Virus record (IMG/VR): IMGVR_UViG_2778261458_000002
Direction: 5' to 3' (one strand)
From: a virus
Taxonomy: Duplodnaviria > Heunggongvirae > Uroviricota > Caudoviricetes
Length of the DNA: 47,331 nt
Shown here: in pieces, positions 4,318 through 20,758 of the stretch
Numbering within the stretch: position 1 is the stretch's first letter
How the letters are laid out: every line of letters begins with the position of its first letter
Notes under the pieces: model-generated
Databases searched by the model: none
Seen by the model: the letters and a program-made list of their open reading frames with translations, nothing else
Told to the model about the DNA's origin: nothing
Translations under genes and position numbers: made by a program

Positions 4318-6339
4318 GTGAGTAAATTATTATTTACGATGACTGACGCCGGGCGTCAGGAGTTGGTTAATGCCAACAAAACAGGAACAAATAAAGTTGA
4401 GATTGTTTCTGTTGGTTTAGGTAGTAGATATTATGTCACGTCAACCTCACAAACAAATATAACAGACGAAATAAAACGACTTACCACAATAGGTGGCAAA
4501 GTTGTTTCCCCTGATACAATTCATGTAACGGCGAAGGATGATAGTAAAGATGAGTATGTTGTCCATACAATAGGATTGTATACAAATAAGGGAACGTTGT
4601 TTGCTGTATACTCGCAAGAACAAGCAATAATAAATAAAGCATCATCTACTATTGCTTTAATATCAAGTGACATAGCAATCAAGACTCTTGATACTAAAAA
4701 TATTACATTTGGTGATATTGAGTTTATTAATCCTCCCGCAACCGAAACTGTTGTTGGGGTAGCAAGATTTGCCAATGAACAAGAAATTGATGCAGGTACA
4801 GATGATTCCCTTGCTGTTTCAGCAAAGCGGCTTAAGCAAGCCATTGTGAAACATGAGCAATCACGTAATCATCCCGATGCAACTTTAACCTCAAAAGGCT
4901 TTGTTCAACTTAGCAGCGCCACCAATAGAACGTCTGAAACGCTTGCTGCGACGCCTAAGGCTGTTAAGGCAGCATATGACCTGGCTAATGGCAAATACAC
5001 CGCACAGGACGCTACTACAGCGCGAAAAGGGATTGTTCAGCTCAGTAGTGCCACTAACAGCACGTCTGAAGTGCTGGCCGCCACACCGAAAGCTGTCAAG
5101 GCTGCATATGACCTGGCTAACGGGAAGTATACAGCCCAGGATGCAACCACGGCTCAAAAAGGGATAGTTCAGCTCAGTAGCGACACCAACAGCACTTCTG
5201 AAACATTAGCTGCAACACCAAAAGCGGTTAAAGCTGCATACGATCTAGCAGCCGGAAAGGCACCATCCAGTCATACACATCCCTGGAATCAGATCACTGG
5301 TGTACCAACAGCTTCATTGACAGCGAAAGGCATCACTCAGCTCAGTAGTGCCACTAACAGCACGTCTGAAGTGCTGGCCGCCACACCGAAAGCTGTCAAG
5401 GCTGCATATGACCTGGCTAACGGGAAGTATACAGCCCAGGATGCAACCACGGCTCAAAAAGGGATAGTTCAGCTCAGTAGCGACACCAACAGCACTTCTG
5501 AAACATTAGCTGCAACACCAAAAGCGGTTAAAGCTGCATACGATCTAGCAGCCGGAAAGGCACCATCCAGTCATACACATCCCTGGAATCAGATCACTGG
5601 TGTACCAACAGCTTCATTGACAGCGAAAGGCATCACTCAGCTCAGTAGTGCCACTAACAGCACGTCTGAAGTGCTGGCCGCCACACCGAAAGCTGTCAAG
5701 GCTGCATATGATTTGGCTAATGGAAAGCAAGCGGCAGACGCTACGCTCACTGCTCTAGCGGCACTAGCTACAGCAGCAGATAAACTCCCTTATTTCACAG
5801 GTGTTGATCGTGCCGCGTTAACTGCATTGACAAGTGTTGGACGCGCCATTCTTGGTAAGACCAGTATTCAGAGCGTTCTTGATTACCTTGGTTTGGGAGA
5901 AGGCTCTGCATTACCTGTTGGTGTCCCTGTTCCGTGGCCTTCAGCTACGCCGCCAACAGGCTGGCTGAAATGCAATGGCGCTGCCTTTGATAAGGTTAAA
6001 TATCCCCGTCTTGCTACAGCATATCCATCAGGGAAACTACCTGATCTCCGCGGTGAGTTTATTCGTGGCTGGGATGATGGGCGCGGCATTGATACAGGGC
6101 GTGCTTTATTGAGTATTCAGAGTGATGAAGTCAGAAAGCTCGCATTAAAATACTGGGGGCCAGCTTCAAACAGTTCACCATCAAAAACATTTGCACTCAG
6201 CGACAGTGCCGGTGGCGGGTTGTACACGGATGGAATAAGTCAGGCAAGCGGTGGGATTATCAACGCTTTTCAGCTCCCTGGCGGTAACGAAACCCGCCCA
6301 CGAAATGTTGCATTTAACTATATCGTGAGGGCTGCATAA
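4318..6339 (+). CDS. tail fibre protein with tandem fibre repeats; constant part plus currently expressed variable C-terminal segment (Sv)
   Basis: 673-aa ORF; repeated 40-aa units (GIVQLSSATNSTSEVLAATPKAVKAAYDLA...); C-terminal collar-like receptor-binding domain; the inversion crossover site lies inside the gene at about 5877-5902. Confidence 0.85.
   Translation: MSKLLFTMTDAGRQELVNANKTGTNKVEIVSVGLGSRYYVTSTSQTNITDEIKRLTTIGGKVVSPDTIHVTAKDDSKDEYVVHTIGLYTNKGTLFAVYSQEQAIINKASSTIALISSDIAIKTLDTKNITFGDIEFINPPATETVVGVARFANEQEIDAGTDDSLAVSAKRLKQAIVKHEQSRNHPDATLTSKGFVQLSSATNRTSETLAATPKAVKAAYDLANGKYTAQDATTARKGIVQLSSATNSTSEVLAATPKAVKAAYDLANGKYTAQDATTAQKGIVQLSSDTNSTSETLAATPKAVKAAYDLAAGKAPSSHTHPWNQITGVPTASLTAKGITQLSSATNSTSEVLAATPKAVKAAYDLANGKYTAQDATTAQKGIVQLSSDTNSTSETLAATPKAVKAAYDLAAGKAPSSHTHPWNQITGVPTASLTAKGITQLSSATNSTSEVLAATPKAVKAAYDLANGKQAADATLTALAALATAADKLPYFTGVDRAALTALTSVGRAILGKTSIQSVLDYLGLGEGSALPVGVPVPWPSATPPTGWLKCNGAAFDKVKYPRLATAYPSGKLPDLRGEFIRGWDDGRGIDTGRALLSIQSDEVRKLALKYWGPASNSSPSKTFALSDSAGGGLYTDGISQASGGIINAFQLPGGNETRPRNVAFNYIVRAA
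5041..5711 (+). repeat. perfect 300-bp tandem duplication (2 full copies 5041-5340 and 5341-5640 plus 71-bp third partial copy) inside tail-fibre gene
   Basis: Lines 5041-5340 and 5341-5640 are base-for-base identical; 5641-5711 repeats the first 71 bp; in-frame (100 codons per unit). Confidence 0.9.
5877..5902 (-). other. inversion crossover site (left), Gin/Hin/Cin-type 26-bp site
   Basis: Reverse complement reads TTCTCCCAAACC-AA-GGTAATCAAGAA, resembling hix/gix-type sites; 15-nt core TTGGTTTGGGAGAAG is inverted-repeated at 7736-7750. Confidence 0.55.
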
Positions 6340-8371: not shown

Positions 8372-8502
8372 CTGGAGTTAGGCCAGTAGTATGATGCTCG
8401 CAAAACGAGATCCAATTTAGATCCTTTTACTGGTGGATTATCGTTCGATCAGTGAGAGACTTCGTGCATGACCGAAAGTGTTGTGGTAGAGTTCTCTTAA
8501 AA

Positions 8503-8515
8503 CCACGTAACGTGG
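8503..8515. promoter_or_regulatory. operator-like palindrome CCACGTAACGTGG upstream of repA leader
   Basis: 11/13 match to the CCACATATCGTGG boxes found three times between the CI-like repressor gene and its divergent neighbour. Confidence 0.35.
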
Positions 8516-8559
8516 TTATGATTGTGGGTGTCTGGTTGGAAAGTGACCAGATATGGAAA

Positions 8560-8670
8560 CAAAAAGCCCGCAGATAAATCTGCGGGCTTCTTGCGACATC
8601 CACGGAAAACCAACAACTAACCATGGGCGCCTCGACAACTCCCATTATACGTTGGTTTTCCGTGGACGCA
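8560..8670 (-). ncRNA. candidate countertranscript (CopA/Inc-RNA-like) of the repA leader
   Basis: Minus-strand intrinsic terminator (AGCCCGCAGA-loop-TCTGCGGGCT then TTTTTGTTT, at 8561-8588) and a 16-bp stem (8599-8614 / 8651-8666) just upstream of the repA start; promoter not identified. Confidence 0.3.
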
Positions 8671-8681
8671 AGAGCGAACAT

Positions 8682-9530
8682 ATGGATAGACCAATGCCGT
8701 CTCTACGTTCAGCTTACGTTTGTAATTTGTCGCCGGAGTTCCAGCCTCCAAAGCACCATACGCACAAGCTGCCGCTGGTGTTATCTGATGCTTTACAGCG
8801 CATTAATGGGCGTGATCTTACGTGTGAGGTTGCGTTCTACGTTAATCAACCGTCAGAGCGGAAGCGCCGGATAAACGAGCATCGTCGTCGGGCGATTAAT
8901 GCTGTGATCGCTGCGATTTTGCACCATGTAAACATCATTTCTAAGCGGGTTCTGGCTAGTGCTGAGGCGTTGGCTGATTTTTGCGGCCTGTCTACCGTAT
9001 CCGAAGCTGGGAACAAGTCTATAACGCGCTGTACAAGGGCGTTGTCGCAACTGAAAGCGTTAGGTTTTATTGATTATGAACGTCGCTGGGATCGGGTGAA
9101 TAAACAGTATTGGCCAGCGAAAATAGAGATTCGTGATCAACTGCTGGAAACCGTTGGTATTACTGAACAAGCATGGAGACGTGCGGTTAGCCAGAAACTT
9201 AATTACTTCAATGCGAAGAATAGCGAACGGCTTAAAAAAGCGATAACGGAGGCTGATTATAAGCGTATTGTTATTCAGGAGCAGATGGAGAATGTATGGC
9301 GTCAGAGGAAGACGGCCAGAGAGATAAAGGCAAAACAGAAAGCAGCGGAGAGAGCTGCGCGTCTTGTTCAGGAAAAGGGAGAGGCCGAACTTCGTCATCA
9401 AATCACTAGAGAGGTTAGCCAGGAATTTGCTGATGGCATGTATCCTGGTGCTGACCTTGCATATTTACGATCCCTCGTTGAGCAGCGTTATAACAGGCTA
9501 AGAAAGACCTGGAAATCACTCCAACATTAA
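8682..9530 (+). CDS. repA: plasmid replication initiator RepA (IncFII RepA1-like family)
   Basis: 282 aa from ATG 8682; AGNKSITRCTRALSQLKALGFIDYERRWD and RRRAINAVIAAILHH align with my recollection of R100/R1 RepA1; upstream in-frame extension to 8553 crosses the structured leader and is rejected. Confidence 0.75.
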   Translation: MDRPMPSLRSAYVCNLSPEFQPPKHHTHKLPLVLSDALQRINGRDLTCEVAFYVNQPSERKRRINEHRRRAINAVIAAILHHVNIISKRVLASAEALADFCGLSTVSEAGNKSITRCTRALSQLKALGFIDYERRWDRVNKQYWPAKIEIRDQLLETVGITEQAWRRAVSQKLNYFNAKNSERLKKAITEADYKRIVIQEQMENVWRQRKTAREIKAKQKAAERAARLVQEKGEAELRHQITREVSQEFADGMYPGADLAYLRSLVEQRYNRLRKTWKSLQH

Positions 9531-13802: not shown

Positions 13803-13826
13803 GCGCCCAAATCGGGCGCTTTGTTT
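13803..13826. terminator. intrinsic terminator shared by convergent genes
   Basis: GCGCCC-AAATC-GGGCGC hairpin followed by TTTGTTTT. Confidence 0.6.
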
Positions 13827-14995
13827 TATGGTTTTGCACCTGCGGCCAGTTTATCCGCAGATATTTTTATCAGTTCCTGTAGTGTCCTGGCTGGCAGGTT
13901 TGCATCCAGTACGCTGAGTATGCTGTTGTGATCAGCTTGGTCGACTACTTTGCCTGTCGGTGGTAGTAGTTTGAGCTGAGGGTTCAGATTTTCGTCAAAG
14001 CTGATAAGTGCTCTGGCGTTTCTGAGCAGATCAAGAAGTAAGGCTGATATCACATTTTCCTGAGTCATTGCTGGCAGATTTAGCGCCGCTTTGGTTTTCC
14101 CTGTTGCCTTGTCAAACTCCTTTATTAGTTCCTTCCTGTAGTTCGGTTCCGTTAATAGCCGATTATGCTCTGTTGCCGCGCGGATAATCGTTTTTTCCTG
14201 GTACAGTCGTTTAGCCAGATCACGCTCGTACTGTGTTTTTAACACGCTGCTGATAGCGTTAAAGGCTTCAATGTAGGCCAGCTTGATATCTTTCACGCCT
14301 GGACCGTCGATACTCTCCATGAGCAAGGTAAATCCGTCTTTTGTCATGCGATAGATTGTTATTTCGCGGTCGCTTCCTTCCAGCGGTCGTTGTTCTTTAA
14401 AGAAGTGACGCGCCGCAGCCGTGCGAGGAATGCGTAACGCATCGATGGCCATAACGATGGAATTGTTTGTGGTGCTGAATGCCTGAGCAACATCGGCTGA
14501 GGTTGTGAGTGGCTCGTTGTTGCACACCTTAATGTAAAATATCGGTTTGGCGTTGAGCGTATCGACAACCTCACGAGCATTGCTTGGCGAGACGGTAACG
14601 GTCGCGGCCGTTTGTGCGTTCTGGTTGAAATAGCAGTCTTCCAGCCGTTCGAACACATCCCACGCTTGGTTAGTTTCAAGCATTTTGGCGTGACGTGCAG
14701 CCCCGCGTTCTGTCCAGAGGATGAGGGAGCGAACTTTCGGGGGAATTTGTAACCCTCTTAAAGATGGTTCGTTAACTACTCTCACAGGAACTCTTAAAGA
14801 GTTTTTGTTCTTCAACTCTCGTAACTCTTTACCTTCTATCCTAAAAAAGTGTTTACCTTCTATAAAACGTTCCTTGTTTCTATTGAAATTGTTTGTCAGA
14901 CGTTGGCGCTCGGTTCCATACAATTGCGCCAGTAGTTCAGTAGTGATAACGGGGATCTGGTTATGCAGGATAGGCTGTAGGGTGTTAACGGTCAT
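13826..14995 (-). CDS. phage antirepressor-like protein (ORF6N/KilAC-type domains)
   Basis: 389-aa ORF; N-terminal ITTELLAQLYGTERQRLTNNFNRNKERF resembles antirepressor N-domains; translationally coupled to a small upstream ORF. Confidence 0.55.
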   Translation of the reverse strand: MTVNTLQPILHNQIPVITTELLAQLYGTERQRLTNNFNRNKERFIEGKHFFRIEGKELRELKNKNSLRVPVRVVNEPSLRGLQIPPKVRSLILWTERGAARHAKMLETNQAWDVFERLEDCYFNQNAQTAATVTVSPSNAREVVDTLNAKPIFYIKVCNNEPLTTSADVAQAFSTTNNSIVMAIDALRIPRTAAARHFFKEQRPLEGSDREITIYRMTKDGFTLLMESIDGPGVKDIKLAYIEAFNAISSVLKTQYERDLAKRLYQEKTIIRAATEHNRLLTEPNYRKELIKEFDKATGKTKAALNLPAMTQENVISALLLDLLRNARALISFDENLNPQLKLLPPTGKVVDQADHNSILSVLDANLPARTLQELIKISADKLAAGAKP

Positions 14996-15183
14996 TTTGC
15001 ACCTCCCATCACTACTTTGGTTACGAGGGAGATTTTTGCGTCAGAAACAGTGTTATCGTTGCTGGCGATGCGCATAGCTTCGCGCTCGATGATTTCAGCC
15101 AGGCGGAATTTATCGGCGTATGAGGCTTTCTTGAGAAGGATCTTTACGAGGTTGACGTAATAGTCATGGGGTAAGTTTGTCAT
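14992..15183 (-). CDS. small protein in the position of P1 icd, upstream of ant
   Basis: 63-aa ORF whose stop overlaps the ant start (ATGA); assignment by position only. Confidence 0.35.
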   Translation of the reverse strand: MTNLPHDYYVNLVKILLKKASYADKFRLAEIIEREAMRIASNDNTVSDAKISLVTKVVMGGAK

Positions 15184-15189
15184 GGTGAT

Positions 15190-15540
15190 AGTTCCCTTAA
15201 AGGTTAAGGATACTCACCACCGTCTGGTTCCAATCATTGGGTGGTGAGACGTACAGGGTTGGAACTACCGGTCACCATGGAATCCGGCGAGTCTTACGAC
15301 TCCCCCGCACGCCCCACCATAATTTGGGTGTAGCAGTGCTTTACGCATAAAAAACCGCTAACGCGGTATGCGCCATGATGATTATCGGGGTTCCAATCCC
15401 GACCGTAGATTTTGCTACGGCTCGGAAAGTGTCCACCAATGGCGCATTCATGTCAATACGGCGAGATTTTAACAGAGACAACCACATAGCGTGGGTTTGA
15501 AAAACGGAATTTTCTGTTCATTAAGCGCATGATTTGACCA
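15190..15540 (-). ncRNA. structured leader / candidate c4-like antisense RNA of the ant operon
   Basis: 350-nt untranslated region with repeated GGTTCCAAYC segments (15227, 15386) and a complementary TTGGAAC segment (15259), plus a CTCACCACC...GGTGGTGAG stem; boundaries unknown. Confidence 0.3.
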
Positions 15541-15576: not shown

Positions 15577-15687
15577 GTGTGAATGTAGGGAACTTATATG
15601 TGAGTATAAGGAACTTTGTGTGATTTATTTGCGAAAAAGTTTGCTTCATATCCAGTTTTTTGGGTATGCTGTGAATGTAGGGAACTA
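15577..15687. promoter_or_regulatory. three 17-bp direct repeats (operator candidates) in divergent intergenic region
   Basis: GTGAATGTAGGGAACT at 15581-15596 and 15671-15686, variant GTGAGTATAAGGAACT at 15600-15615. Confidence 0.4.
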
Positions 15688-15756: not shown

Positions 15757-16296
15757 ATGACTGAAACATCAAAAAATTCATGTTTTTCAACAATTCACCT
15801 AATGATCATAAAAGAACTTAGGCTGGAAAGAGGTGTGCATCAAGGAGTACTGGCTCAAGCTGCCGGAAAAACACCAAACGCATGGACAAAGATAGAGAAC
15901 GGGCAGTCTGTATTAACAGTTGATGCCCTTTTTGGTGCTTGCACAGCCCTTAATATTAGCCCAATGAATTTCATGTTGTTGGTAGAAAAACTGATTCCCG
16001 AATTTAATCGCCATGGTTACTACTTTTTCCCTGGAACAATCAGTCAGGACGAGGATAACCTTTTACCTCTGATGCTGCGTTACTTTAATAGCAAGGGGTT
16101 TGAAGCATTGAGAAATAGGCCATTCGAAAGAATTAGCATAAGCTCAATGGGATTTTCATTTGGGGGCGGCATCCCTGTTACTCCAACTGCTGTAATGTAT
16201 TGTTGCGATGAAGCATACAGAGATTGGGTCGATAACGGTGCTGATACGGATAATCGAGATTATCAGAAGCCATTAACAGGTCTTGGACTGTTTTAA
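15757..16296 (+). CDS. HTH (XRE-like) regulator, candidate repressor of the ant region
   Basis: 179-aa ORF, GAGGAGG RBS; N-terminal LAQAAGKTPNAWTKIENGQSVLTVDALF helix-turn-helix; divergent from ant operon. Confidence 0.5.
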   Translation: MTETSKNSCFSTIHLMIIKELRLERGVHQGVLAQAAGKTPNAWTKIENGQSVLTVDALFGACTALNISPMNFMLLVEKLIPEFNRHGYYFFPGTISQDEDNLLPLMLRYFNSKGFEALRNRPFERISISSMGFSFGGGIPVTPTAVMYCCDEAYRDWVDNGADTDNRDYQKPLTGLGLF

Positions 16297-16733
16297 TGAG
16301 TGAAGAAACAAAAAAACCGCCCTATTGAGGACGGTTCTTTCGTGCTGATCGGATTCGCGGTCCTTTCAGCATTACGTTGTTGTATAAACAACCACGCAAG
16401 CACAAGCAGCAAGTTGATTTTACCCAAAAGGTAATAATAGTCCACTATTATGCTTCAAAAAATTGTGGTTCTTGTTGTGTCTGCAAACTCACAGATTGTG
16501 GGTAGGTTACTGATTTTGTGAAAATAAACTGGTTTTTTCGTTTAATTTATTTCCTATTACTAATCTTAAAATAATCGTAAAATACCTGTGGACCTTCCCG
16601 CCGATTCGCACCCGGGCACCGACTTTAGGGGAGGATTCTCCGTTGCCGTACATGCAAGCACAAGCAGCCGTGCTTGCTCTCGCGTTGTTTTCGTCGGTGG
16701 GGATGCCGTGAAACGGCCTGTAAGGGCCATACA

Positions 16734-16856
16734 ATGAAAAAATACTGTATGTGTATTTTTATCGTTGTTACTGGGGCTTTGTTTACGCCACATGGGGAGG
16801 GTTGGAAGATTACTGATAACGCTCTGAATGTGACGATAAACATTAGCAGCAAGTAG
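16734..16856 (+). CDS. small hydrophobic peptide (40 aa), speculative
   Basis: MKKYCMCIFIVVTGALFTPHG... preceded by a long hairpin-rich leader and followed by a strong terminator; no Hok signature. Confidence 0.25.
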   Translation: MKKYCMCIFIVVTGALFTPHGEGWKITDNALNVTINISSK

Positions 16857-16862
16857 CGATTA

Positions 16863-16884
16863 GGCCCCTTCGGGGGCCTTTTTT
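16863..16884 (+). terminator. intrinsic terminator
   Basis: GGCCCC-TTCG-GGGGCC hairpin followed by TTTTTT. Confidence 0.7.
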
Positions 16885-18075: not shown

Positions 18076-18170
18076 TTATATAATTCTATAAATCTATATT
18101 TATAGAACGAGGTAAGCATAACCAACTTTTTGGCGGATGAAAAGCGTTTTATATAATTATATAAATCTAT
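18076..18170. repeat. two 23-bp direct repeats upstream of parA (centromere/operator candidate)
   Basis: TTATATAATTCTATAAATCTATA (18076-18098) and TTATATAATTATATAAATCTATA (18148-18170); a related box lies between parA and parG (17368-17400). Confidence 0.45.
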
Positions 18171-18202
18171 AATCATATAAGCGGGCGTTAGCCCGCTTGC
18201 AG

Positions 18203-18577
18203 TCAGAGGTCAGCTATCGTTGATATCAGTTGATTTGCTAGCTGTCGCTGTTTACGTGAGAGGGTTAGAGCAGCTTCTGAGCGGTCGCTAAGAGGGGTGT
18301 TTTCATCAAGAATCATGAGGCATACAGAAATAATAGCCCTGTTATATGCCATCAATGGCTGGCACAGCTTCGATACCGCTGGCACATCGTATTGTAAGGC
18401 CGTTTTGAGGCAGACTTTTTGTTCTGATGCCAGATGAAGGATAGATTCTATCCAGTCGATATCTTTCTCATTATCAATGATTTGGCATAACATACACTCA
18501 ATCGCTATGTTCAACGCTTGGATTTCGATTCCAGCAGTGATCAGAGTTTCGTTTTTATTGGCTGTATGTAATTCCAT
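18203..18577 (-). CDS. hypothetical protein
   Basis: 124-aa ORF downstream of repressor gene; operator-like CCACAAAGTGTGG 37 bp upstream of its start. Confidence 0.4.
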   Translation of the reverse strand: MELHTANKNETLITAGIEIQALNIAIECMLCQIIDNEKDIDWIESILHLASEQKVCLKTALQYDVPAVSKLCQPLMAYNRAIISVCLMILDENTPLSDRSEAALTLSRKQRQLANQLISTIADL

Positions 18578-18613
18578 GCGTAGCCTCTTTTATACTTTCA
18601 CATGTTGTCAAAA

Positions 18614-18626
18614 CCACAAAGTGTGG
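18614..18626. promoter_or_regulatory. operator-like palindrome CCACAAAGTGTGG
   Basis: Same CCAC-N5-GTGG architecture as the boxes at 19447-19501. Confidence 0.35.
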
Positions 18627-18669
18627 TTTTTTTGAGCGTAGAAATGCACGGCTTTCGCCGTGCTGTGTA

Positions 18670-19326
18670 TCATAACCAGTTGACAACACTAACTACGCGG
18701 CCAAGAACTTTATAACGCTTAAATTCCTCGTTATTCAGATGCTTAGTGTTCATTTCAGCATCCCTTTCGGTTGACAGCATAACAGCATTGTCACCCGGTA
18801 TGACTCTACAGTGCCTCAAAACAACCAGGCCATTTCTGTCTTCAAGGGCATAGATCCCCTCATGAATCTCTGTATCGTCTGTATCAATCAGGACTTGGGA
18901 GCCTGGGGATATTGTTGGTGACATTAACTCATCGTTGCTCTGGAGAACTGACAGAGACGATGGGTTGATGTTCTTGCTTCGTAGAATCTCCTGTTCTATC
19001 GCCAGCACTGGCTTTTCTCCGGCGTGCGATGCTATGTCATTTTTTATGGCTACAAGCCCAGGAATAACAGGAGCGTTAGTATTCTGGGGTGGGAACGGGT
19101 TATCTGTTAAGCACGCGATATAAGGCGCTGATGCTTTCAGGGCGTGCGCAATTTTCTTGATGGCAGGTATAGATGGTTGTCTTAATCCGGCCTCATAGTT
19201 CTGCAAGGTGCTTAAGCCTATTCCAGTGACTTGCTGGAGATCTCCGGCAGTCATGCCGGATTGTTTCCGTAGAGTCTGAATGCGCAGACCTATTTCTTTC
19301 TTGATGTTCTCGTCGTTGCTTTTCAT
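18670..19326 (-). CDS. CI/LexA-like repressor (N-terminal HTH, C-terminal S24 peptidase-like domain)
   Basis: 218-aa ORF; HTH IGLRIQTLRKQSGMTAGDLQQVTGIGLSTLQNYEAG; C-terminal domain with Ser (ELMSP) and Lys (KVLGRVV) as in autocleaving repressors. Confidence 0.75.
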   Translation of the reverse strand: MKSNDENIKKEIGLRIQTLRKQSGMTAGDLQQVTGIGLSTLQNYEAGLRQPSIPAIKKIAHALKASAPYIACLTDNPFPPQNTNAPVIPGLVAIKNDIASHAGEKPVLAIEQEILRSKNINPSSLSVLQSNDELMSPTISPGSQVLIDTDDTEIHEGIYALEDRNGLVVLRHCRVIPGDNAVMLSTERDAEMNTKHLNNEEFKRYKVLGRVVSVVNWL

Positions 19327-19364
19327 GTCTCATCAATCGTGAATGGTGGGTTATTTATACATTA

Positions 19365-19501
19365 CCACATTTAGTGGTTTTCACATGGTAAGACGAGAGG
19401 TGGACCACAAATAGAAGGTTATTTTTTGTTTCGCCCATTGAAAAGCTCACGATATGTGGTTTTAATACCACATATCGTGGTTTTAATACCACATATCGTG
19501 G
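19365..19501. promoter_or_regulatory. operator array between divergent repressor and early genes
   Basis: CCACATATCGTGG at 19468-19480 and 19489-19501, inverted variant at 19447-19459 (21-bp spacing), variant CCACATTTAGTGG at 19365-19377. Confidence 0.55.
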
Positions 19502-19521
19502 TTTTAATTGGAGTTCGTTAA

Positions 19522-20016
19522 ATGACCTTTCAGGAGTGGGTTGACGAAAATGGAGGCCAAATTGGTGTTGCCAGAAAGTTTGGCTTTACGTCATCACTGA
19601 TTGGTGCCTGGTATCGCTTCGAGAGATTCCCTCGTGCGGATAACCTGACGCTGCTGGTGGCGTATTCGGAAGGCCGGATTAACGTCCAGCAATGGGCGGC
19701 AGATTTTGCCGAACGTCAGCGCCAGCGTAGCGATGGCACATCGGTTCGGCAGAACAAGATCAAAGGGAATCTCCCTGTTAACTGCTTATCAAGGTTGAAA
19801 GCGGTTTTCTCTGAGCTGGGGATGCCTGCGGAGCGTTGCAATCTACGCGGTCCGCGATTCATTGCTCGCTGGAAACACTCACACGTAACCGTTTCAGAGG
19901 TTCGTGATGCGATTACCGTGCTGGAGCTTAAGAATAAAGATTCCAGCGATATCGAGCTGATTCATAAGGAGATTAGCAACGCCCGGCGTTCAGCACTTGG
20001 GAGGCTTGAGGAATGA
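19522..20016 (+). CDS. early regulatory protein, possibly Cro-like
   Basis: 164-aa ORF divergent from repressor, GGAG RBS; N-terminal GQIGVARKFGFTSSLIGAW HTH-like segment. Confidence 0.35.
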   Translation: MTFQEWVDENGGQIGVARKFGFTSSLIGAWYRFERFPRADNLTLLVAYSEGRINVQQWAADFAERQRQRSDGTSVRQNKIKGNLPVNCLSRLKAVFSELGMPAERCNLRGPRFIARWKHSHVTVSEVRDAITVLELKNKDSSDIELIHKEISNARRSALGRLEE

Positions 20017-20528
20017 TGATTCTGGCCTTCTTTGGTGATAATCACCAGATTCAATCGCAGGTGGTGCACTACCTTGATCAAACGATTAAAGGATTTGTTA
20101 TCGATCATATTGATAACGATAGTAAACGTCTATCTGTAGAGCAGAAAATTGGACGTGTGCAGCGACTGGTTGCCAGCCGTAACAGACGTGACACCGTAAC
20201 AGTCGTCACGGGGATAACGGAGGTCATGGAGTACCAGATGTTGCTGCATCGCGGAGCTGTTTTCTGCGTTCTTCCTGGCATTCTGCCAGCAATTCTTGCT
20301 CGTGGTTTTGTCCCTATTGATGAGTCGTTCTTATATGTAACCCCAAGCCGTTCCCTTCTGGATACGGAGGCGAAGCGTCGCATTTATATGATGCCGGACG
20401 AGGCATTTTCTGAATGTTACCGCCGTGAAATGAGGTTGGGTAAACGAGAAGTGTCTGTTGTTCGTGATGGCAGGTTTTTAAGAAGCCGCACGGTGAAAAG
20501 CACCAGAAATGACGGGGGGCATCAATGA
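20013..20528 (+). CDS. hypothetical protein
   Basis: 171-aa ORF, ATGA overlap with upstream gene. Confidence 0.4.
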   Translation: MMILAFFGDNHQIQSQVVHYLDQTIKGFVIDHIDNDSKRLSVEQKIGRVQRLVASRNRRDTVTVVTGITEVMEYQMLLHRGAVFCVLPGILPAILARGFVPIDESFLYVTPSRSLLDTEAKRRIYMMPDEAFSECYRREMRLGKREVSVVRDGRFLRSRTVKSTRNDGGHQ

Positions 20529-20758
20529 GTAGTTATGTTCGCGGTGCTGCGATGCATTGCCAGAATCCCCAATTCTGGCGCTTTCTGACCAGTAAAACAG
20601 GGAAGAACGTTTCAAACAGTTCTGAGGCCTCTGTGATTCTGCGTGAGTTTTGCGGGATCTCATCCCGTAAAGAGCTGGCAAAGAACTACGCGGCCAGAAG
20701 CATGTATGTCCAGTTAATCAACGAGTTCAACCTCTTTATCAATGGTAAGGGGCGCTGA
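20525..20758 (+). CDS. hypothetical protein
   Basis: 77-aa ORF, coupled to neighbours. Confidence 0.3.
   Translation: MSSYVRGAAMHCQNPQFWRFLTSKTGKNVSNSSEASVILREFCGISSRKELAKNYAARSMYVQLINEFNLFINGKGR

Follow-up and report, generated by a model that had tools for sequence, protein, structure and literature searches.

Predicted operators of a prophage repressor at the lysogeny switch and at outlying promoter regions of an Escherichia coli phage-plasmid

Genes and palindromic boxes at the switch

The window analyzed here is the whole 47,331-nucleotide stretch of IMG/VR virus record IMGVR_UViG_2778261458_000002, an E. coli phage-plasmid of about 47 kb that combines an IncFII-type RepA, ParA and a P1-like isrK/C4/Ant module with genes of a myovirus. 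Its lysogeny switch is bounded on one side by a repressor gene (18670-19326, minus strand; 218 amino acids, with an N-terminal HTH_3 and a C-terminal S24-like domain) and on the other by the first gene of a divergent early operon (19522-20016, plus strand; 164 amino acids, phrog_7452). Several palindromic boxes lie between these genes; they are enriched in the window and conserved among its relatives, and comparison of their sequences makes it quite probable that they are the operators of the repressor encoded at 18670-19326. In existing records the genes of this immunity system are annotated as hypothetical.

The element is a circular phage-plasmid, as are its related records. Region 18100-20600 shares 98% identity with three circular Yersinia myophages of about 49 kb (vB_YpM_39, 41 and 44), and, given this identity to phages isolated on Yersinia pestis, the element also forms infectious virions. 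PLSDB contains 58 non-mobilizable plasmids, 46-52 kb in size and from Escherichia and Klebsiella, that match the same region at 98% identity. Searched with a 301-bp probe, 71 of 5,426 complete E. coli genomes proved to carry a relative, at 72 places of which all but one lie on plasmids. The phage-plasmid, roughly 47-49 kb in size, is thus common among complete E. coli genomes and PLSDB plasmids; species-representative genomes scanned with repressor peptides and with the double-box pattern gave no matches, the element not being carried there. A protein search for repressor homologues led to contigs of more distant relatives, syntenic elements of 46-47 kb from Citrobacter, Klebsiella aerogenes, Yokenella, Salmonella and unassigned read assemblies. 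Seven such lineages, with repressors 61-67% identical to that of the window, form the comparison set. Membership in a pSLy3/SSU5 phage-plasmid group was considered and dismissed, as those elements belong to a different supergroup.

On the early side of the switch stand three boxes. O1 (19447-19459; TCACGATATGTGG) has one mismatch to CCAC and is followed at a distance of 21 bp by O2 (19468-19480; CCACATATCGTGG) and, again 21 bp from start to start, by O2' (19489-19501), which is identical to O2. The spacer of O1 is the reverse complement of that of O2 and O2', and Tandem Repeats Finder (TRF) describes the array as 2.8 copies with a period of 21. A fourth box, OM (19365-19377; CCACATTTAGTGG), lies 39 bp upstream of the repressor ATG (19326, minus strand). 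The coordinates given for the boxes in a preliminary description of this DNA were all correct when re-checked, and the box at 19365-19377, described there as a variant, turned out to be an exact match. In the lineage of E. coli and the Yersinia phages O1 and O2 together form a perfect 14-bp inverted repeat around a 6-nt loop, TTTAAT (19447-19480); as a candidate for a conserved hairpin this repeat was discarded, since it is not kept outside the E. coli lineage.

The scan of the whole window with the 13-mer, as proposed in the preliminary description, returned seven exact matches to CCAC-N5-GTGG where 0.41 are expected, a count reached in none of 100 shuffles. Alignment of the sites revealed that the full site is longer than this 13-bp core and corresponds to a 21-bp palindrome, AAAACCAC-(G/A)WWW(C/T)-GTGGTTTT. 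With a weight matrix of this 21-mer seven sites of the window score between 19 and 31 bits: the box at 8503 reaches 31.2 bits, those at 19468 and 19489 30.3 bits each, those at 18614 and 19365 28.5 and 26.1 bits, respectively, the box at 15482 (outside the training set) 21.8 bits and O1 at 19447 19.3 bits. Below them is a clean gap, the next best score in the window being 12.2 bits and the mean maximum of the shuffles 8.3 bits. The strong site at 15482-15494 had been overlooked in the preliminary description. Another exact match, at 4484-4496, was dropped from the regulon as a chance occurrence; it lies inside a tail-fiber open reading frame (ORF), has a score of 4.8 bits and is not flanked by A/T.

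The pattern of conservation is that of protein-binding sites. While the intergenic DNA of the switch region shows a mean column identity of 75% among the lineages, 23 of the 24 arm positions of three full boxes are invariant, against 3 of 15 spacer positions. An orthologous O1 box with a variable spacer is found in all seven lineages, six lineages show four or five different spacers in O1 and O2, and yet the distance between O1 and O2 is 21 bp in every lineage and that from the repressor-proximal box to O1 81-83 bp. Kept positions are the putative early promoter (two boxes), the repressor start, the 3' side of the repressor terminator and the region upstream of repA; a fifth, upstream of isrK/C4/ant, is kept in most lineages only. 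An exact scan of IMG/VR for the double box found 10 contigs, all 10 of which encode this repressor family next to the boxes. It is because of the conserved arms with free spacers, the promoter-proximal positions and the co-occurrence only with this repressor that we read the boxes as its operators.

Relative to conserved hexamers, boxes O1 and O2 overlap a putative early promoter, PR. Its elements in the lineages are TTGAAA, TTGATA or TTGCTT, a 17-bp spacer and TTTAAT, a hexamer that also serves as a functional -10 element in the tet promoter of pBR322. O1 fills the 17-bp spacer between the putative -35 TTGAAA (19438-19443) and -10 TTTAAT (19461-19466), and O2 lies over the expected transcription start. 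On the repressor side OM keeps its position in every lineage and touches or overlaps candidate -10 elements for the promoter of the repressor gene: a conserved TAA(T/A/G)GT directly follows the box, and TATAAA, TATTAT or TATTAA stands a few bases further on.

The third early box is peculiar to the window. The duplicated unit, GTGGTTTTAATACCACATATC, doubles O2 together with the TTTAAT hexamer. We looked for it in the 71 E. coli genome records, the 40 listed plasmids, the three phages, the 10 IMG/VR contigs and the diverged relatives. The intergenic region of the Yersinia phages is exactly 21 bp shorter than that of the window; none of the 58 plasmid records falls in the band of at least 99% identity, and all 40 listed span 2478-2486 bp of the 2501-bp query; no E. 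coli genome record matches the 301-bp probe at more than 92.7% identity (280 of 301 bases); and the 10 IMG/VR contigs, like all diverged relatives, have two boxes only. O2' is a recent 21-bp tandem duplication private to the window, and since every relative examined lacks the third box, the general state is a pair of boxes at a distance of 21 bp. The phasing of three boxes noted earlier is exact in the window itself, but it does not describe the ancestral arrangement. A small ORF running through the operator region, to which the duplication would add seven in-frame codons, was rejected as its frame and stops are not conserved in the relatives.

Between OM and O1 lies a further conserved element (19404-19418; ACCACAAATAGAAGG) with one good half-site and a position weight matrix (PWM) score of -2.5. 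The block AACCAC(A/G)AA(A/T)AG(A/G)AGG at this position is invariant in all lineages, and its center is 42 bp from that of O1 and 40 bp from that of OM, so that the site centers of the switch are spaced 40, 42, 21 and 21 bp, all near whole numbers of helical turns. In L031, a relative whose repressor is 33% identical, a full box is present about 41 bp from the inner PR box. The element at 19404-19418 may be a weak or vestigial operator.

Boxes beyond the switch

Three further boxes lie at other genes. The first (18614-18626; CCACAAAGTGTGG) is placed between the terminator of the repressor gene and the ribosome-binding site (RBS) and ATG (18577) of a 124-aa gene (18203-18577, minus strand; phrog_7632), a putative regulon member. 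The order after the repressor stop codon is an intrinsic-terminator hairpin (18646-18663, minus strand; GCACGGC-GAAA-GCCGUGC, -15 kcal/mol) that ends the repressor transcript, the box and, some 25 nt on, the 124-aa gene with its Shine-Dalgarno sequence and ATG. The hairpin is kept in the relatives, where a T-run follows it, and the box between the repressor gene and the next gene is found in six of six diverged lineages, with six different spacers. As a separate hairpin precedes the box, we assign the latter to the control region of the 124-aa gene and not to the repressor's terminator; its previous description as lying downstream of the repressor gene is right in position, but the site is located past the terminator, in the promoter region of the following gene. 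The proteins of 124, 164 and 171 amino acids encoded next to the switch (the latter two within 19522-20528, plus strand) belong to PHROGs of unknown function, are conserved in all lineages and gave no Pfam or NCBIfam match.

This box also invites an explanation at the level of nucleic acid, namely that the palindromes are hairpins acting as terminators or attenuators, above all 18614-18626 and the 14-bp inverted repeat of O1 and O2. A scan of the sequence marks 19447-19480, 19488-19502 and 15494-15482 as terminator-like, and 18614-18626 consists of an A-run, a stem and a T-run that fold at -9.3 kcal/mol, its orthologue in L002 even at -10.5 kcal/mol with a U6 tail. The G+C stem of the palindromes measures, however, only 4-5 bp, and the repressor gene already has its own strong terminator of -15 kcal/mol. 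Moreover, the A and T runs change sides among lineages, as expected for a symmetric site but not for a directional terminator, the long inverted repeat of O1 and O2 is lost in other lineages, where the spacers differ, and a free 5-nt loop between strictly conserved 4-bp arms near promoters is the pattern of a protein site. We therefore consider the hairpin explanation very improbable, and retain that of repressor operators.

The second outlying box (8503-8515; CCACGTAACGTGG) lies upstream of repA (8694-9530, plus strand; IncFII_repA family). By comparison with orthologues of 277-278 amino acids the real start of repA is probably 8694 and not 8553, where the longest ORF begins. Two candidate -10 elements, TGgTAGAGT (8484-8492) and TATGAT (8517-8522), flank the box, and the target of the antisense RNA in the repA leader lies downstream of it. 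In L002, L003, L004 and L007, which are all the loci that reach repA, it is found about 180 bp upstream of the start of a 277-aa RepA, again with -10-like elements around it (TGnTAGAGT upstream and TA(T/A)GA(T/A) immediately downstream). The strand opposite the repA leader (8545-8680, minus strand) can form two long hairpins followed by a U-tract (-70 kcal/mol, z = -8.3) and has a TATAAT upstream; Rfam returned no match for this segment at the gathering threshold. It is likely a CopA-like antisense RNA of an IncFII-type replicon.

DnaA boxes are common in the control regions of plasmid repA genes. With one of the boxes in just such a region, a host factor such as DnaA comes to mind as their binder, the more so as ACCACA is similar to the 3' portion of TTATCCACA, the DnaA box. 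This resemblance is partial, though, as the 5' half of the DnaA box is unmatched, and the boxes are strict palindromes in which the N5 spacing is fixed and the A/T flanks are symmetric. Their clustering at the immunity switch and their occurrence only together with this repressor gene also speak against a host factor. Binding by a host factor is accordingly the least plausible of the explanations we weighed, and extremely unlikely against recognition by the repressor.

The third outlying box (15482-15494; CCACATAGCGTGG) belongs to the immI-like module (13826-15421, minus strand), its center lying 67 bp upstream of the 5' end of isrK. The module is composed of isrK (15348-15421, minus strand; Rfam, 65.4 bits), C4 antisense RNA (15237-15324, minus strand; Rfam, 84.3 bits), a small ORF and an antirepressor gene (13826-14995, minus strand; 389 amino acids, ORF6N and pRha domains), and the same arrangement of isrK and C4 upstream of an ORF6N/pRha gene is present in the relatives. 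The box overlaps the -35 and spacer region of a candidate extended -10 promoter, TGtTAAAAT (15474-15466), which reads TGgTAGATT in relatives; a conserved putative promoter, TTGACA-17-GACACT, lies 26 bp downstream of the box and ends about 7 nt before isrK. A box at the same offset, AAAACCACAATG(C/T)GTGATTT, is found in L004, L006 and L007, and a close copy in the E. coli plasmid L009.

In the neighborhood of this module a second XRE-family gene (15757-16296; 179 amino acids) is preceded by three copies of a 17-nt direct repeat, TGTGAATGTAGGGAACT (15578-15686), the first two of which are 21 bp apart. Its product may be another regulator that acts at sites of its own. The immI-like module and the par genes have a ryfA-like RNA (16588-16884, plus strand; Rfam RF00126, 141.8 bits) between them, which was detected in L006 and L007 too. 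The window also has a tRNA. A Hin-type invertase and a HigB-like toxin module are attributed to it from the annotation of a relative.

The repressor and the candidate binders of the boxes

Several lines of evidence identify the repressor as a protein of the CI fold. Pfam assigns HTH_3 (4.5e-11) and a Peptidase_S24 domain of 20 bits, under the cut-off of 23.3 bits, and the PHROGs matched are 'transcriptional repressor' and 'CI-like repressor' (PHROG 4, PHROG 6201). With the AlphaFold model (pLDDT 70), Foldseek retrieves a lambda-186 hybrid repressor, 186 CI, lambda CI, LexA and UmuD' (E-values of 3e-7 to 1e-3); profile and sequence searches of PDB with the C-terminal domain returned nothing useful. 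In a MAFFT alignment with manually entered reference sequences of LexA, lambda CI and UmuD, the catalytic Ser is replaced by Leu (DELM), the Lys by Arg (LRHCR) and the Ala-Gly bond by Ile-Lys or Ile-Asp, in all family members. With both the Ser/Lys dyad and the cleavage site replaced, the protein appears to be a non-cleaving repressor of the CI fold; the earlier label of a CI/LexA-like repressor thus fits its fold but not the residues for self-cleavage. This reading is accompanied by the presence of an antirepressor in the window and by the absence of LexA box enrichment (15 matches against 14.2 expected), none of these matches lying at the promoters relevant to SOS control of ant or of the switch.

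The segment of residues 9-49 in the repressor, with the helix-turn-helix (HTH) GIGLSTLQNYEAG, is nearly invariant in the family, whereas the linker and C-terminal domain diverge; a near-invariant HTH region matches the unchanged arm sequence of the boxes. A profile-guided scan extended the comparison to L031-L034, IMG/VR contigs of 16-47 kb with repressors of 30-33% identity that nevertheless keep the STLQNYEAG helix and a divergent early gene beginning MTFQEWV. Their switch regions have ACCAC/ACTAC-N5-G.GG boxes in the same layout, with an early-side pair 21 bp apart in L031. Because these relatives keep the repressor, the early gene and the box type, the switch module is, by this comparison, older than the E. 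coli phage-plasmid group.

Another phage protein might be the main binder of the boxes, either the 164-aa early protein acting in the manner of Cro or the second XRE protein (15757-16296). The 164-aa protein is kept beside the boxes even where the repressor is only 30% identical, and of 11 orthologues three give weak YdaS matches (best E-value 0.0013) and one a weak P22_Cro match (E-value 0.11), which makes it a candidate Cro-type protein. In phage lambda, Cro and CI have operators in common. For the protein itself, in contrast, no Pfam, NCBIfam or PDB match was obtained, and its AF2 model (pLDDT 56) is too poor for a fold search, so that the protein could be given neither a significant family or PDB assignment nor a confident fold. 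The second XRE gene is preceded by 17-nt repeats of its own and is absent in some lineages that retain the boxes, while a palindrome with half-sites one helical turn apart suits a dimeric HTH_3/S24-like repressor. In N15 and phiKO2 Cro acts on only one site of the repressor CB (PMC4997575), and sharing of sites by two proteins would be compatible with their being operators of the repressor. Main recognition by one of these other proteins therefore seems improbable, although less so than a hairpin or a host factor. The 164-aa protein is also more conserved than the repressor (71-76% identity in relatives).

Several observations weigh against assigning the boxes to the repressor. Recognition by the repressor is itself deduced from sequence comparison; all close relatives share the HTH and the motif alike, so that the comparison, though supportive, falls short of a true covariation test, and a different palindrome, CGCTTAAAGCG, stands next to three distantly related short HTH proteins whose TLQNYEAG helix is similar. 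The first early protein may share the same sites. The isrK box is missing from the lineage of L002, L003 and L008, where the upstream DNA is different. A strict consensus scan called no canonical sigma-70 promoter at the boxes. The PR -10, TTTAAT, departs at position 2 from the A usually found there, and the repressor and repA promoters have poor -35 elements; as none of the hexamers passes the consensus scan, the placement of the boxes relative to transcription starts is a by-eye reading of conserved hexamers.

Comparison with known systems and a proposed model

The closest system in logic is that of N15 and phiKO2, likewise phage-plasmids with a non-cleaving repressor and with operators both at the switch, between the repressor gene and a divergent early gene, and at repA. 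In N15 induction proceeds through an antirepressor, AntC. In the phage-plasmid studied here the antirepressor is embedded in a P1-type isrK/C4 module, unlike in N15, and the replicon is circular, has a RepA of the IncFII type and likely encodes a CopA-like antisense RNA, whereas N15 is a linear telomere plasmid. The N15/phiKO2 repressor CB lacks the Ser/Lys residues and the cleavage site, binds three OR sites plus, at the repA promoter, two OL sites, and lowers plasmid copy number (PMC4997575). Its operator is a 16-bp T-A-N10-T-A (PMC4997575), as opposed to CCAC-N5-GTGG within a 21-bp palindrome, and in place of three OR and two OL sites we find two boxes at PR (three in the window) and single sites at four places.

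With P1, where C1 controls the immI promoter at Op51, the element shares the principle of one repressor acting at scattered promoters of a plasmid prophage, as well as a C4 antisense RNA (84.3 bits in the window) that lies upstream of an antirepressor gene and keeps it in check. The P1 operators are, however, asymmetric 17-mers, ATTGCTCTAATAAATTT, for which the window holds no match with up to three mismatches, and about six sites in the window contrast with the 22 dispersed C1 operators of P1 (PMC8546580). The comparison with CB and C1 draws on operators, replicon, Pfam and fold search. Since the operators differ, the replicon is an IncFII-type circle and the repressor groups with HTH_3/S24-like proteins, the system is, as judged from these sequences, outside both the N15 and the P1 systems.

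In operator geometry and in its two-domain protein fold the repressor comes closest to lambda CI. The lambda consensus operator is ATCAC-N5-GTGAT, and OL1 reads T-ACCAC-TGGCG-GTGAT-A; ACCAC-N5-GTGGT has the same core geometry. Adjacent in-phase sites over the rightward early promoter and a site at the repressor's own promoter are further likenesses. Differences are the lack of the self-cleavage apparatus, a recognition helix of the HTH_3 type of 434 and P22, a spacing of 21 bp instead of 23-24 bp, the absence from the window of a site placed, like OR2 of lambda, to activate the repressor promoter, and the additional sites at a plasmid replication gene and an antirepressor module.

We propose the following model. 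A dimer of the HTH_3/S24-like repressor would bind each 17-21-bp palindrome, AAAACCAC-N5-GTGGTTTT, whose half-site centers are about one helical turn apart. Two dimers spaced by 21 bp, i.e., two helical turns, would lie on the same face of the helix, over the spacer and the start of TTGAAA-17-TTTAAT, and occupancy of O1 and O2 would shut off the divergent early operon, probably cooperatively via the C-terminal domains. The single OM site by the repressor's own promoter would provide autoregulation, and at repA, at the 124-aa gene and, in most lineages, at the isrK-C4-ant operon a single site in the promoter region would repress transcription. In this way the outlying sites would make plasmid replication and the antirepressor module dependent on the immune state, and loss of the repressor would raise the early genes, extra RepA and Ant together. 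Given the missing self-cleavage residues, induction is expected to pass through the antirepressor and not through RecA-stimulated autocleavage, with Ant also relieving the repression of its own transcription. O2' would add one more in-phase operator downstream of the start, together with 21 nt of leader, and would, if anything, tighten repression of the early operon. The candidate regulon beyond the immediate switch that had been suggested before is borne out to the extent that boxes at five kinds of position are kept across the seven lineages.

A more far-reaching version of the model is offered tentatively, as we rate it as possible but on the whole unlikely. In this version a single non-cleavable CI-fold repressor would wire together a lambda-like divergent switch, an IncFII/CopA-type replicon, a P1-type isrK/C4/Ant module and the 124-aa gene, and its loss would trigger lytic transcription, runaway RepA and an antirepressor burst. 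For the replicon the parallel is CB of N15, which acts on an unrelated RepA. The in-phase sites and the site about 750 bp away might join in one looped complex, and the third operator might represent a natural 'super-repressed' allele. If true, one repressor would govern four modules for each of which a different model system is normally used, and positive feedback would make the antirepressor burst simultaneous with lytic transcription and RepA synthesis.

A literature search found no paper on the motif, these phages or this element, and the immunity system of this phage-plasmid has apparently not been described before. N15/phiKO2, P1 and lambda already exemplify the principle, and the finding thus extends a known kind of system and leaves the concept unchanged. 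The sites are defined well enough for mutagenesis, and the two-box and three-box versions of PR offer a natural comparison. For this widespread family of phage-plasmids, the predicted operator map provides a testable model in which lysogeny, plasmid copy number and antirepressor-driven induction would be coupled.

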